From an uncultured Methanosarcinaceae archaeon (lineage in GTDB: Archaea; Halobacteriota; Methanosarcinia; Methanosarcinales; Methanosarcinaceae), in assembly GCA_963847185.1 (NCBI GenBank), contig CAWJYV010000010.1:640001-704000 (forward strand): 64,000 bases of DNA, read 5' to 3'. Below are positions 30,647 to 36,364 of this stretch, in pieces (position 1 is the stretch's first letter; each line of letters begins with the position of its first letter). Made by a program: the position numbers and the translations under genes. The notes beneath the pieces are model-generated. The model was not told the origin of the DNA. It worked only from the letters and a program-made list of their open reading frames with translations, and did no database searches.

Positions 30647-31192
30647 TTATCTTTTAATTTTCGACATCACACTCTGAGTAATCAGTTTTTCGTACTTTCT
30701 CCAGGTATTTTCATCAATTTCAGGCATAGATATACTATGAGCTTCACTTCTCGCAGGAGCGGTGCAGGAGTCGATTACTTTCTGGATGGCGGCAGGATCT
30801 TTATTTCCAACCATATCTATGACTTTTATTTCTCTGAGAAAGCGGGTGATTGCAGTCATCGGGATTTCATTTAAGTAGGGCAGGGATGCTTTTGAACCGA
30901 CTATTTTTCGCGAGCCTGCCATTGTAGAAACGCCATTTTCAGCAAGTGCAATCAGGGACTGACCTGGAAAATGGGCACTATCTTCTCCGCAGACGACCAG
31001 GCAGGTTATATTCGGGTTTGCAAGAACATTTGCAATTATTTTCTCAATCCCGAAGTTCTCAGAAAAGCAAGTTCCGCAGATAGCATAATTTTTCAGGTTC
31101 CAGATTCTATAGTCAGAGGTAAGAGTCACTACAGCTACGCTTGAATTTACATTCCCTATTACATAGTCACCATCAGTTACAGGCCACTCCAT
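30647..31192 (-). CDS. Soluble MtrA/MtxA-like corrinoid protein
   Basis: WP..GDY.IG, AVVTL, ENFGIEKIIANVLANPNI, CGE...H.PGQSL; no C-terminal membrane anchor. Confidence 0.85.
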   Translation of the reverse strand: MEWPVTDGDYVIGNVNSSVAVVTLTSDYRIWNLKNYAICGTCFSENFGIEKIIANVLANPNITCLVVCGEDSAHFPGQSLIALAENGVSTMAGSRKIVGSKASLPYLNEIPMTAITRFLREIKVIDMVGNKDPAAIQKVIDSCTAPARSEAHSISMPEIDENTWRKYEKLITQSVMSKIKR

Positions 31193-31310: not shown

Positions 31311-32681
31311 CTATTCTCCTAAATCCTCAGAAATGCCTGCTGAAATTCTCTCGGCTTCAATTTCTGCCAGTCTTTCTTTTTCGATTTTTATAAGCCTGAA
31401 TGAGAGAAAAACAACTATGTATATTATTGCGGCTGCGATAAGGAAGGAAATTGCTCCGAAATGTGTATAGAGAAGGCCACCTGCCAGAAGGCCGATTATA
31501 CTTGCCAGGCTACTTGCACTCATGGCAAACCCCTGTACTGAGCCCTGATACTTATTTCCTGCAAATTTTGAGAGGATAGAGAGGATAGAGGGCCACATGA
31601 TTCCGTTTCCAAGCGCAAAAAAGACAGCTGCTATATATAAAAGGAAAAAATTTCCGGGGACTATGAGGATGAACTGCAGGCCAAGGATGAAGCCTCCACC
31701 GACTACCAGAAGCGATTCCCGATACCTTTTAGCAAGTCTTCCAAGAACAGGTCCCTGCACGAAAGCCATAAGGGCACTAATAACGGAGAAATAAATGCCA
31801 AGTGTGGCAGGATTCCATTCAAGGGCTGCAACAGCAAATATCGGGAATGCAGTATAATATATATTAAAACCCAGAAAGATAAGAAAATAAAGGGTCAGCA
31901 TGAAAGGGATATACTCAAGCTTGAAAATCTCGTTGAAGGTAACTTTATTTTCTCCTTCTACACGATAACATTCCTTTTGCTCCTGTCCAAGTACTTTCCT
32001 TATACTTTCAGGTTCGGAGTATCTTTCAATTTTGCAGGGTTTGGAATCAGGTAGGAAGAATATCACGACAAGAGCCCCTATAACTGAAATTACAAGGGCT
32101 GCAGACACAGGGAGAAGTTCACCGTAAACAGTTGCCCCGAGGAGACCTGCAAGGGCAGGGCCGACTACATATCCAAGATTGGAGGCAACAGACATCCTTC
32201 CATAGTTTTTGTTTCTATCCTCTTCGGATGTCAGGTCTGCAAGATACGCGTTTGCCACAGATATGTTTCCTCCTGTAGCCCCATCAAGAGCTCTGCCACA
32301 GAAAAGCGCAAACAGAGGAAGGGTGACTGTAAATGTACCAAGAAATTCGGAGTTAACTTCTATTAAAGGGATTATCGGCAGGAAGAGCGCGGAAAGAAAG
32401 ATTATCCATCCAATAACGGTCCCAATCTGGCTCAATAACAGAATTTTTTTCCTCCCATAAAGGTCAGACCAGCGCCCCAGAACAGGAGCTCCGATGAGCT
32501 GGAAGAAAGGATAAGTGGAAGTCAGCAGGCCGTAGATAAGTGCATTTCCTTTGTAGTCAGTCACGAGAAATACGAGAAAAGTGAGGATAACCCCGAATCC
32601 CAGGGTTCCTATGAATGTGATCGTATATAAGGGAAAAAGTGCCTTCCCTTCTACAGATGAGGATTCTGAATCCCGAATCAT
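31311..32681 (-). CDS. MFS transporter (TetA/DHA1-like)
   Basis: GRWSDLYGRK motif A, RALDGATGGN, ~12 hydrophobic segments. Confidence 0.9.
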   Translation of the reverse strand: MIRDSESSSVEGKALFPLYTITFIGTLGFGVILTFLVFLVTDYKGNALIYGLLTSTYPFFQLIGAPVLGRWSDLYGRKKILLLSQIGTVIGWIIFLSALFLPIIPLIEVNSEFLGTFTVTLPLFALFCGRALDGATGGNISVANAYLADLTSEEDRNKNYGRMSVASNLGYVVGPALAGLLGATVYGELLPVSAALVISVIGALVVIFFLPDSKPCKIERYSEPESIRKVLGQEQKECYRVEGENKVTFNEIFKLEYIPFMLTLYFLIFLGFNIYYTAFPIFAVAALEWNPATLGIYFSVISALMAFVQGPVLGRLAKRYRESLLVVGGGFILGLQFILIVPGNFFLLYIAAVFFALGNGIMWPSILSILSKFAGNKYQGSVQGFAMSASSLASIIGLLAGGLLYTHFGAISFLIAAAIIYIVVFLSFRLIKIEKERLAEIEAERISAGISEDLGE

Positions 32682-33299
32682 CCATAGATAGTATGTTTAC
32701 TTCATGCCTTATAGTATTTCATATCTAAATTTTCGAGTTTCGATGTGGCTTCTTTCGGAGTAAATGAATGCTATTCTTTCATTTCTCTATGAAAAATACC
32801 GCTAAACACAGGCCAAGAGTCACTTTCCCGGTGTTGTTTCCAGAATGCCTTTTTCTGGAAAGGTTCTAAACTCTTCTCATTTGTATCCCATGTCGAGACT
32901 TAAACGTGAGGTCAAGCTAAGTCTTTAGACAATATCTAAAATCTGGACATTCTGTACTTAAGAACAGCTCATTAAGAGGTTTTTATGTTATTTGGGAGCT
33001 GTATGAGGAACTAATTAACGCCTGAAATGATTCTTTTTGCTTTATTCGCATTCTAGCCGCTTTCAGAGATTTTATAAAGAATAAAAAGATGAATAATACG
33101 TGAAAACTACCTTTTGCTTTTCTCGGAGACTTTTTAATTGATATAGGAGTTTATATACTGATTTATTTAAATTTGGAGTTTCCATCATCTATTATCAAGG
33201 TAAATAAAGTATTATCAAGTTTTAAACCCTTTACGCATAGCAATATTCAGGACTGTTATAAAAAGTATACTTATATTCTAATTTTACAATATGAGTTTA

Positions 33300-33785
33300 G
33301 TCCCAGGTTGCTTCCCTTGAAATAAAGCAAAAGTCGGGAGCAATATACGGGAAATTAAAAGATCTTTAAATTTGAAGGAATAAAGATCTCTCTAAAAAAT
33401 AAGAAGGAAACTTCGAAAAACGAGGAACAAACACGGAGAAAATTGAACACTAGTACGTTCAGTGTACGAAAGTTGCGATATCTGCTCTTTCAATTAAGTC
33501 TCTGTTCCTTCCGGAGATGCTGTGGCAGAAATCGCTACCAGATCCCGTGCAGGCAACCTGCATTATGCCTCTGAACAGGTACTGATTCAGAGTAGACGGT
33601 TGCACGACAACAGAAAGCACAGTTGTTGTATTTCTCTGTGATGAATAAAAACCCTGGATAAGCGGTAGAAAGGCGGTGTCTGATACTGAATGAATCGGGG
33701 TTACTACCTTACACAGAAGAATTTTTCAGGTAACACCTGAGGGCGGATCAGATGTTGCCTGAAAGATCTTTCTTATTTTTGGGTA
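33300..33785 (+). ncRNA. Candidate large structured non-coding RNA (unassigned)
   Basis: GC-richer island within a 1.3-kb ORF-free intergenic region. About 10 hairpins, a 14-bp closing stem, GAAA loops and a T-rich end; TATA-like boxes at 33256-33277. Confidence 0.5.
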
Positions 33786-34045
33786 GATATTTTCGAGATA
33801 GTTATTTCTAGCTTGCTATTTTCTGAATCTATTCTTTAATCATTAATGCTGTTTTTAGTCGTAATTTTATAAGTTGCTATTTGTGGCCGATTTTAAGTGT
33901 TATTCTCTGGGCCTTATTTTCAGTGTTACTTTGGAATTATTAATCTTCGAATCTTAATTCTTTAACTTCTTGTCCTTTACAGATGGATCTCGCAAAATAA
34001 AAGGCCTCGAAATATTCTTTATTCCAGAGTATTATTCGGTTATAT

Positions 34046-34717
34046 ATGTCAGTAATATATTGGAAGAATATTTCCGGAAAGAATATACCTTCAAGCCTGG
34101 ATTTATACCCTGTAATTTATCAGTATTTACAGGATGGATACAAAATTCTCGACATTGGATGCGGTTTTGGCAAGATTAGCCTGAAACTCGCTTCCCTCGG
34201 ATATTCTGTGACAGGGATAGACATTAATCATGAGGCAATAAGGCTTTCAAAAGTAGTTGCAGAGGAGGGAAGTACTTCAGGAAAGGCTGAATTTGCAGTC
34301 GGAAATGCTTCGGTACTTCCTTTTTCTGGAAAAAGTTTTGATCTTGCAGTCATGCAGGCTTTTCTGACCTCTGTACCTGACGCGCAGGAAAGAATAAAAA
34401 TCATAAAGGAAACCTTCAGGGTACTGAAACCCGGAGGCTGTCTCTATCTTGTAGAATTTGGACAGAACTGGCACCTTAAACTTTATAGGAACCGTTATCT
34501 CAGGGATTTCCCAGTTACAAAAGAAGAAGGATCTTTCCTTGCCCATAACCCTGAGACCGGAAAAGTAGAGTATATAGCACATCATTTCTCCGAAAAAGAA
34601 CTTGTACTTCTGATGGTAAATTGCGGGTTTGACATCGACTATTTCAGGATTGAAGAACTCAAAACCAGAACCGGAAATAAAATTAATGGTTTTGTTATCA
34701 TTGCTAAAAGACTTTGA
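34046..34717 (+). CDS. Class I SAM-dependent methyltransferase
   Basis: ILDIGCGFG, GIDIN, LPF...SFD, RVLKPGG. Confidence 0.9.
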   Translation: MSVIYWKNISGKNIPSSLDLYPVIYQYLQDGYKILDIGCGFGKISLKLASLGYSVTGIDINHEAIRLSKVVAEEGSTSGKAEFAVGNASVLPFSGKSFDLAVMQAFLTSVPDAQERIKIIKETFRVLKPGGCLYLVEFGQNWHLKLYRNRYLRDFPVTKEEGSFLAHNPETGKVEYIAHHFSEKELVLLMVNCGFDIDYFRIEELKTRTGNKINGFVIIAKRL

Positions 34718-35404: not shown

Positions 35405-35564
35405 TTTATATAGTATGAGAGCTTGGGTCATATTAGCAGTAAAAATAAAGAGCCATATAATCTGTTATTAAAAACCTCATTTTTGTTTTTAATAAAAGAG
35501 CGTATAGATCTTATTTTTATAGCAGCCTAAATGTATATCCGCTATAAGCGGAGGTGAAACAAAA
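35405..35564 (+). promoter_or_regulatory. TATA box and conserved structured 5' leader, copy 2
   Basis: TTTATATA; ATAATCTGTTATTAAAAAC..GTTTTTAATAA; TCCGCTATAAGCGGAGGTGA. Confidence 0.8.
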
Positions 35565-35789
35565 GTGAGTTTTAGTGACAGAGGAGGGCATTCCTTCAGA
35601 GGAAGAGATAGCAATCGGGGAAGTAGAGACAACAACCGTGGTGGTTTCAGAGGCGGCAGCAGCGGACCCAAAGAAATGTACCCAGCGGTTTGTTCTGACT
35701 GTGGCGTTGAGACCCAGGTTCCATTCAAGCCAGCTGAAGGAAGACCTGTTTACTGCAGAGACTGTCTCCCAAAACACAGAAAATTCTAA
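35565..35789 (+). CDS. RGG-rich CxxC-x17-CxxC microprotein (copy 2, GTG start)
   Basis: FRGRD..RGGFRGG...CSDC-x17-CRDC. Confidence 0.9.
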   Translation: MSFSDRGGHSFRGRDSNRGSRDNNRGGFRGGSSGPKEMYPAVCSDCGVETQVPFKPAEGRPVYCRDCLPKHRKF

Positions 35790-35989: not shown

Positions 35990-36139
35990 TTATATATAAC
36001 ATAAACAGATTTTTACAATTAGTAAAAATAATAAGACATAATCTGTTATTGAAAACTTCATTTTCGTTTTAAATAATAAATTATCTCTTATCATATTTTT
36101 ATAAATTATTTTATCCGCTATAAGCGGAGGTGAAACAAA
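35990..36139 (+). promoter_or_regulatory. TATA box and conserved structured 5' leader, copy 3
   Basis: TTATATA; ATAATCTGTTATTGAAAAC..GTTTTAAATAA; TCCGCTATAAGCGGAGGTGA. Confidence 0.8.
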
Positions 36140-36364
36140 ATGGGTTTTAATGACAGAGGAAACTCCTTCAGGGGAAGAGACAGCAGCCGGGGTGGCAGAG
36201 ACAGCGGCCGTAGTGGTGGTTTCAGAGGCGGTAACAGTGGCCCCAGAGAAATGCACAAGGTTACCTGTTCTGACTGCGGGGTTGAGACTGAAGTTCCGTT
36301 CAAACCAACCGAGGGACGGCCAGTGTACTGCAGAGAATGCCTTCCTAACCACAGAAAATTCTGA
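36140..36364 (+). CDS. RGG-rich CxxC-x17-CxxC microprotein (copy 3)
   Basis: CSDC-x17-CREC; near-identical to copy 5. Confidence 0.9.
   Translation: MGFNDRGNSFRGRDSSRGGRDSGRSGGFRGGNSGPREMHKVTCSDCGVETEVPFKPTEGRPVYCRECLPNHRKF

Follow-up and report, generated by a model that had tools for sequence, protein, structure and literature searches.

The window, that is the whole stretch of 64,000 nucleotides (nt) analysed here, contains an intergenic region of 1.36 kb that has no credible open reading frame (ORF) and lies between an MFS transporter gene (31311-32681, minus strand) and a SAM-dependent methyltransferase gene (34046-34717, plus strand). From about 33299 to about 33781 on the plus strand, this region is probably a stand-alone gene for a structured noncoding RNA (ncRNA) of about 480 nt that is confined to Methanosarcina and matches no catalogued family. 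The transporter gene reads divergently from the ncRNA, and the methyltransferase gene lies downstream on the ncRNA strand. The GC content is 0.45-0.48 at 33400-33699 versus 0.255 and 0.295 in the flanks (33100-33299 and 33800-33999, respectively), in agreement with an earlier note on this DNA that had described the segment as richer in GC than its surroundings. Beyond the transporter gene, 30647-31192 (minus strand) encodes a stand-alone MtrA-family protein (PF04208, 137 bits) outside the mtr operon context. On the other side, 35565-35789 and 36140-36364 (plus strand) encode paralogous 74-residue proteins with an N-terminal half rich in RG and RGG and a treble-clef zinc finger (PF23477). The leaders of these two genes (about 35440-35564 and 36020-36139) are about 77% identical over about 125 nt and each has at its end a hairpin, CCGCU-AUA-AGCGG, the 3' arm of which shares bases with the ribosome-binding site GGAGGUGA; such a hairpin could be a structure-controlled translation switch. 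The two paralogues may be RNA-binding proteins and are candidate partners of the ncRNA.

The plus strand of 33300-33800 folds at -158.2 kcal/mol versus -119.8 +/- 6.0 kcal/mol for 100 dinucleotide shuffles, none of which folds as well (z -6.42). The same comparison gives z -3.83 for the opposite strand of the segment, and z -5.74 and -4.66 for two distant orthologues (L013 and L004, respectively). This shuffle test and a scan against Rfam were among the checks that the earlier note had suggested for its proposal of an unannotated structured RNA. In the scan, membership in a family was taken as a covariance-model score at or above the gathering threshold of that family. With the Rfam 15 models, sRNA41 (RF02905; 42502-42616, plus strand; 70.2 bits, E 5.8e-10) is the sole family in the 64-kb window to reach its gathering score, and none does so in the ncRNA region. 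At E<=10 the region 32700-34100 gives four chance-level matches, the best of which is mir-2329 with 22.7 bits against a gathering score of 90. The ncRNA stays below threshold for the Rfam 15 models of RNase P, SRP, tmRNA, group I and II introns, HEARO, OLE, GOLLD, ROOL, riboswitches and the M. mazei sRNAs, which agrees with the earlier statement that no RNase P, SRP, group I/II intron or HEARO signature is visible. Conserved C (RUGAUGA) and D (CUGA) boxes, as in C/D box sRNAs, are not shared by the orthologues; a GUGAUGA occurs at 33639-45, but just in the window and its relative L002, where a deletion created it, and the remaining orthologues differ at this place. The motif AAAGATCTTT is not clearly enriched across the window (17 matches versus 10.1 +/- 3.3 expected, with 2 of 100 shuffles reaching 17), and its meaning is local; GAGGGCGGA likewise shows no enrichment elsewhere in the 64-kb window. 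We found no description of the ncRNA in the literature. A catalogue of 248 M. mazei sRNA candidates, which Jaeger et al. are said to have compiled in 2009, lay outside the comparison, so that an unnamed listing there is possible.

The ncRNA is genus restricted, single copy and dispensable. A BLAST search with 33250-33850 against 41 related genomes matched 19 of 24 Methanosarcina genomes and none of 16 from five other families, and the region has a single match in its own genome. The parts conserved in this search are the 40 nt upstream, the first approximately 180 nt and the last approximately 140 nt, and the middle is of variable length. A covariance model of the 3' domain (R1) matches 28 of 34 Methanosarcina genomes and none of 116 genomes from 15 other genera of the family; at the level of the order, the model matches 11 of 12 genomes in the genus and none of 138 genomes from 22 other genera. 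Viral contigs gave no match to the ncRNA. The plus strand scores 106-152 bits in 27 of the 29 matching genomes, and the same loci score 33-53 bits on the minus strand. Weaker plus-strand scores are found in G165 (62.3 bits; G165:C1:2930803-2930942) and G126 (49.8 bits; G126:C115:15549-15656), where BLAST similarity extends over only about 90-100 nt; these copies are diverged or partly decayed. Six of the 34 genomes of the genus, which are 92-99% complete, give no match to the 3'-domain model, and for this reason the ncRNA is regarded as dispensable. One genome without a match (G146) keeps an upstream MFS orthologue with 80% identity that adjoins unrelated DNA.

The region directly upstream of the ncRNA is strongly conserved. 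The promoter (33261-33288, plus strand) comprises the 8-bp palindrome AGTATACT (33264-71), the near-invariant TATA-like sequence TTATATT (33271-77) and a conserved spacer, which we take to be a BRE/TATA arrangement from general knowledge of archaeal promoters. TATA-like boxes had been noticed here before. Among 19 genomes, 25 of the 28 positions are invariant and one more is at least 90% conserved. When 185,579 species genomes were scanned with the 28-nt pattern, it was found in 27 contigs, once per genome, and the titles of these contigs are Methanosarcina or unclassified MAGs of Methanosarcinales, Methanosarcinaceae or Methanobacteriota. Transcription is predicted to start at 33299/33300 (plus strand), at a purine after T that lies 25-26 nt downstream of the TATA centre, which is the usual archaeal spacing, and just before the conserved UCCC of the first hairpin. 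The predicted start is directly followed by a conserved T(A/G)TCCC. Archaeal RNA polymerase stops at oligo-T, and transcription of the ncRNA would stop at the U-tract 33776-80, a likely terminator; the tails of the second clade described below have no run of five U. Contigs from four RNA-library runs in three studies (sludge, sediment and soils) cover 33316-33748 with a few differences between strains. Such assembled contigs place the sequence in RNA libraries, but strand, ends and level cannot be read from them and they may include DNA. The lack of RNA-library contigs on 32900-33275 and 33793-34300 was considered as a sign of discrete ends and set aside, since missing contig cover proves nothing.

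The structure was examined in 29 distinct orthologous sequences of 363-653 nt (alignment A2), from which duplicates, incomplete rows and one broken copy had been removed. These split into two clades, with 15 sequences including the window in clade 1 and 14 in clade 2. The sequences left out are L020 (5' part only), L039 and L057 (locus incomplete at the sequence end), L047 (a disrupted second copy), 15 exact duplicates, and L021-L030, of which L023 is a duplicate contig copy of L012 (among the 15 duplicates) and the nine others are second pieces of loci already represented. The second copy in L047 (L047:5222-5993, minus strand), from one MAG, contains the promoter and the 5' part of the ncRNA; directly behind the promoter it carries about 140 nt of inserted DNA whose ends are inverted, and it is divergent past the closing-stem strand. 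It is either a broken duplicate or a bin mixture.

Stems were judged by mean pair probabilities and explicit pair counts, as a simple helix finder on A2 returned mostly noise from purine- and U-rich sequence. Run on the full alignment, RNAalifold gave only a partial structure because the clades are out of register, and folds for each clade are clearer. Over all tested helices (88 pairs), 91-94% of cells are paired versus 35-56% in slid controls, and 27 pairs have changed on both sides. In the 3' domain (P6 and P7, alignment A3), 94.1% are paired over 34 pairs versus 34.5-47.8% when the partners are slid, 10 pairs show changes in both partners, and covariation scores 0.179 versus 0.130, a value reached in 0 of 500 shuffles. 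For the remaining helices (54 pairs in A2) the figures are 90.9% versus 46.6-55.6%, 17 pairs show changes in both partners, and the shuffle count is again 0 of 500. Because the 29 sequences are relatives from two clades, many of the double changes in either set trace back to one event, and the support is less than the shuffle control makes it appear. All complementarities that the earlier note had listed are present in the sequence, and the comparison of orthologues separates those that are conserved from those that are not.

The ncRNA begins with P1 (33301-33353), a two-tier hairpin with an outer stem UCCC/GGGA and an inner stem UUGCUUCCC/GGGAGCAA. It is part of the minimum free energy (MFE) fold of the window, and 28 of 29 orthologues have it as their MFE fold even though the inner stem differs in sequence. 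It is followed by P2 (33358-33391), a module with the palindromic arms AAAGAUCUUU and AAAGAUCUCU and the loop motif GAAGGAAU at 33374-81; its seven pairs are paired in 98.5% of cells over the 29 orthologues. The 29-orthologue comparison backs the two leading hairpins that had been drawn at 33308-43 and 33360-89. In other species P2-type units of the form AAAGAUCUU-AAAAAC-GAAAAGGAA make up a tandem array, with 0-6 units per orthologue (regex count), and these modules of AGAUCU stem and GAAGGAA loop are a conserved part of the ncRNA that varies in copy number.

P3 (33445-33460) is a small hairpin with the stem GAAC/GUUC. Two of its five pairs have changed on both sides (C-G/U-A 9:15 and U-A/G-C 10:12), and both of these top pairs switch between the clades. 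The P3 loop (UAGGG or UAAGGG in the orthologues; 33449-56 in the window) is complementary to a CCCUUA that follows the P6 domain, with 96.4% of cells paired over five pairs, which amounts to a long-range contact between a loop and a strand of the 3' domain. In the window the partner is either 33702-06, where TAGTA (33451-55) would pair with TACTA over 5 bp (our reading), or 33708-11 in the aligned register with 3 bp. Relative to L002, which is 93% identical, the loop and its long-range partner have changed together in the window. The changes are clustered at 33451-33456 and 33702-33708, with a P3 loop one base shorter and GGA replaced by TAC; RNA-library contigs of related strains have one more G after 33452, and A in place of C at 33456.

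The best-supported helix is P4 (33473-33537), a long central hairpin in which 33473-87 pairs with 33522-37 and an apical stem (33499-504/33512-17) carries the loop 33505-11. Nine of its 13 pairs have changed on both sides, the apical stem is 99% paired, and the mean pair probability over the 29 sequences is 0.5-0.77. Across orthologues the apical loop is AUUCCUUC, which has the form UUCCUUC in the window. Several stems that had been proposed around P4 do not survive the comparison. Apart from the window, the stem 33441-47/33489-95 is shared by just its closest relatives, L002 and L003, with one pair less in the latter, and the stem 33422-29/33503-10 is missing even in L002. The two supposed GAAA-capped hairpins correspond to a single-stranded linker and to the 3' strand of P4. 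In the variable middle (33547-33629), the hairpins at 33547-63 (GTGCAGG/CCTGCAT), 33569-92 (CTCTGAA../..TTCAGAG) and 33604-29 (ACGACAAC/GTTGTTGT) had been listed as parts of the structure; they are conserved with covariation in the window's clade and are replaced or deleted in the other, and are thus lineage specific.

The P6 domain (33650-33702) is formed by AACCCUG/CGGGGUU enclosing CGGUA/UACUG and a GGC-GGU-GUC mini-hairpin, and is part of the window MFE. Its three helices are 80.0%, 98.9% and 97.7% paired, with five pairs changed on both sides; the previously drawn stem GGTAG/CTACC has to be given up because it clashes with the conserved helix CGGTA/TACTG. P7 (33715-33773) is the terminal hairpin, with a core at 33724-64, an extension AGAAG/UUUCU and the loop AGGGCGGAU at 33740-48, in which GGGCGG is invariant across orthologues. 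Its 22 pairs are 96-98% paired, and one pair of the extension is split evenly between G-C (14 sequences) and U-A (14 sequences). The core, already noted as a 17-bp hairpin and upheld by the 29 orthologues, has a pair probability of at least 0.85 for most of 16 pairs, with two lower values of 0.71 and 0.53.

In the window MFE the strands 33395-33408 (AAAAAUAAGAAGGA) and 33767-33780 (which includes the U-tract) form a 14-bp closing stem. This stem holds in the window's clade, where the duplex is strong in 13 of 15 sequences (z -3.1 to -7.0; up to 18 bp), but is weak in all 14 clade-2 sequences (z +1.0 to -1.7); over both clades the paired fraction is 82% of cells, and at five positions 10-14 rows lack a pair. 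In clade 1 the ends of the ncRNA thus appear to be clamped by a stem of 14-18 bp. The tail 33767-73 can pair either with 33715-19, as the P7 extension (G-C in 14 sequences, U-A in 14), or with 33402-08, as the closing stem (clade 1 only). These pairings are mutually exclusive and may reflect a clade difference or a real alternative conformation. The lengths of the A-run and U-run in the closing stem agree in part (A5-U5 in 4/4, A6-U6 in 6/10); this agreement is too weak and phylogenetically linked, and was not counted. A relationship between the closing stem and the CxxC leaders nearby was also rejected: the shared words are 10-nt AT-rich sequences (E 0.31) and there is no match at up to two mismatches, as expected if the likeness is due to chance, which the earlier note had allowed for.

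Two orthologues are natural short variants that lack P4 or P3-P5. L006 (L006:1229-1627, minus strand; 399 nt) is without P4 and the subsequent hairpins, and in L019 (L019:1228-1590, minus strand; 363 nt) P3 and the greater part of the middle are missing. What both retain, namely P1, the modules, P6 and P7, is therefore the minimal conserved set.

The region is noncoding. The longest ORFs differ in place and frame among the 29 orthologues, and an ATG frame that recurs in clade 2 meets an early stop in 5 of the 14 sequences and has no counterpart in clade 1. Five ORFs of the ncRNA region gave no Pfam family. Neither a decayed coding sequence nor a known family, which the earlier note had named as outcomes that would overturn its proposal, was found (no conserved ORF, no Pfam match, no Rfam match). 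That the locus is instead a DNA-level element, either an array of palindromes (AAGATCTT) that bind protein downstream of a divergent promoter or the remains of a coding or mobile sequence, is very improbable and already largely refuted. In its favour, the number of palindromic AAGATCTT units differs between orthologues, as it would in a tandem DNA repeat, and one MAG has the second, broken copy with its inverted-end insertion. However, covariance-model scores are strand asymmetric, compensatory changes occur in helices remote from the repeats, the locus is single copy and mostly conserved, viral contigs lack it, and the sequence is found in RNA-library contigs. The ncRNA could also be a long cis-acting 5' leader of the methyltransferase gene, similar to a riboswitch or attenuator, in which P7 and the U-tract would act as a conditional terminator and re-pairing of 33767-73 as the switch; we consider this quite unlikely. 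The gene lies on the same strand and is found downstream in 13 of 20 ncRNA loci, a stable hairpin adjoins the U-tract, each of the two exclusive tail pairings has some comparative support, and long 5' UTRs have been reported for M. mazei (PMC3600222). Linkage to the downstream gene is not constant as it should be for a leader, however, since the gene is missing in 7 of the 20 loci, in four of which the ncRNA is directly followed by a convergent SMR gene; the upstream neighbour is also variable. Because the ncRNA persists where the methyltransferase gene is missing, it is not simply a leader of this gene, and the variable neighbours and the promoter of its own argue that it is conserved for its own sake and not only as a leader. 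Archaeal termination does not require a hairpin, and about 265 nt of poorly conserved AT-rich DNA separate the ncRNA from the methyltransferase ATG. A conserved TATA-like sequence, AAATATTCTTTATT (within 34011-34046), is located about 25 nt upstream of this ATG in the window, L051 and L056, which suggests a separate promoter for the methyltransferase gene and an mRNA that is leaderless or nearly so. The proposal of an unannotated structured RNA is thus upheld by the shuffle test, the compensatory changes, the strand bias of the model, the promoter, the lack of a conserved ORF or Rfam match, the folds of the distant orthologues and the persistence of the ncRNA without the downstream gene.

Our best guess as to function ranks a trans-acting scaffold or titrator above a base-pairing regulator, and the latter above a methyltransferase leader. 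An ncRNA of this size, with so many conserved helices, a long-range contact and invariant loops, looks more like a scaffold than a simple antisense regulator, and our tentative proposal is that it serves as a trans-acting scaffold or titrator. In this model a protein or complementary RNAs would bind to several purine-rich GAAGGAA loops, presented by the 5' repeat modules, and to two invariant loops (AUUCCUUC and GGGCGG) of the folded core. The AUUCCUUC loop might pair with the GAAGGAA motifs of the same molecule and so mask itself. The loop is the exact reverse complement of the module motif GAAGGAAU in 11 of 28 loop-bearing orthologues and would form a duplex of 6-8 bp in most others, a complementarity that lies only about 2 standard deviations beyond that of shuffled loops; it would allow self-masking or pairing with purine-rich sites in other RNAs. 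A regulator that acts by base pairing, in which the C/U-rich apical loop (AUUCCUUCC) would mask purine-rich, Shine-Dalgarno-like sites of target mRNAs and the 5' GAAGGAA repeats would serve as a tuning decoy, is rather unlikely. In its favour, a conserved stem at the end of P4 carries the loop, about 25 of the 28 loop-bearing orthologues have a complement of 6-8 nt nearer the 5' end of the molecule, C is replaced by U where the loop varies, which preserves pairing as G-U, and there is a precedent in M. mazei sRNA162, which is reported to target mRNAs via distinct domains (PMC3510493). On the other hand, about 480 nt and a complex fold are far above the size of known archaeal base-pairing sRNAs, an 8-nt motif is unspecific in a 4-Mb genome, L006 is without the loop, and the z-score of the complementarity is only about -2. 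An unconstrained duplex between the ncRNA and sRNA41 (-56.0 versus a shuffle mean of -56.9) is no better than shuffles, a design that is uninformative. It is also doubtful, to about the same degree as a leader, that the ncRNA founds a new class of large structured archaeal RNAs with an activity of its own, be it a self-assembling RNA, a ribozyme or the core of a Methanosarcina-specific ribonucleoprotein. For self-assembly, the palindromic AAGAUCUU modules and the loop and repeat motifs (AUUCCUUC with GAAGGAAU) could pair between molecules.

To our knowledge, very few large structured RNAs are known in archaea beyond rRNA, RNase P and SRP RNA, and we know of none that only methanogens carry. 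For the genetics of methanogenesis, Methanosarcina is the main model. The size and long-range pairing of the ncRNA suggest more than a simple antisense regulator, its module array is a natural series of copy-number variants, and its description would add an Rfam family and improve the annotation of dozens of genomes and MAGs. As the ncRNA is conserved, single copy and dispensable, with a strongly conserved promoter and invariant loops, and markerless deletion tools are reported for Methanosarcina (PMC3177094), a direct test is possible.

Among known RNAs, the M. mazei sRNAs sRNA41, sRNA162 and sRNA154 resemble the ncRNA in belonging to the same genus, in being intergenic and in having their own promoters, and both they and the ncRNA contain pyrimidine-rich single-stranded motifs that could pair with ribosome-binding regions. 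The ncRNA is three to four times longer than these sRNAs and multi-domain rather than made of one or two hairpins, and matches none of them by sequence or model. The sRNA41 of the window contains CCUCCUAGAUCU, so that the AGAUCU palindrome is common to sRNA41 and the ncRNA modules. The modules are also reminiscent of CsrB/RsmZ, which have tandem hairpin modules with a GGA-containing loop in species-variable copy number. GAAGGAA lies in the P2 loop of the ncRNA, and there are 2-13 purine-rich motifs per orthologue (regex). Unlike in CsrB/RsmZ, the modules are confined to the 5' quarter of the ncRNA, and the remainder adopts a complex fold that is conserved; the partner CsrA (PF02599) has no match in the genome of the window (99.8% complete), and controls matched in three bacteria. 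OLE, GOLLD, ROOL, HEARO and raiA are large structured ncRNAs of unknown or recently emerging function that are all in Rfam. Unlike these, the ncRNA matches no Rfam model even at E<=10, belongs to an archaeal genus, has no consistently linked partner gene and carries a module array of variable copy number at its 5' end. Like them, it is hundreds of nt long, has many conserved helices and long-range contacts, is narrowly distributed, is probably a transcription unit of its own and is noncoding.
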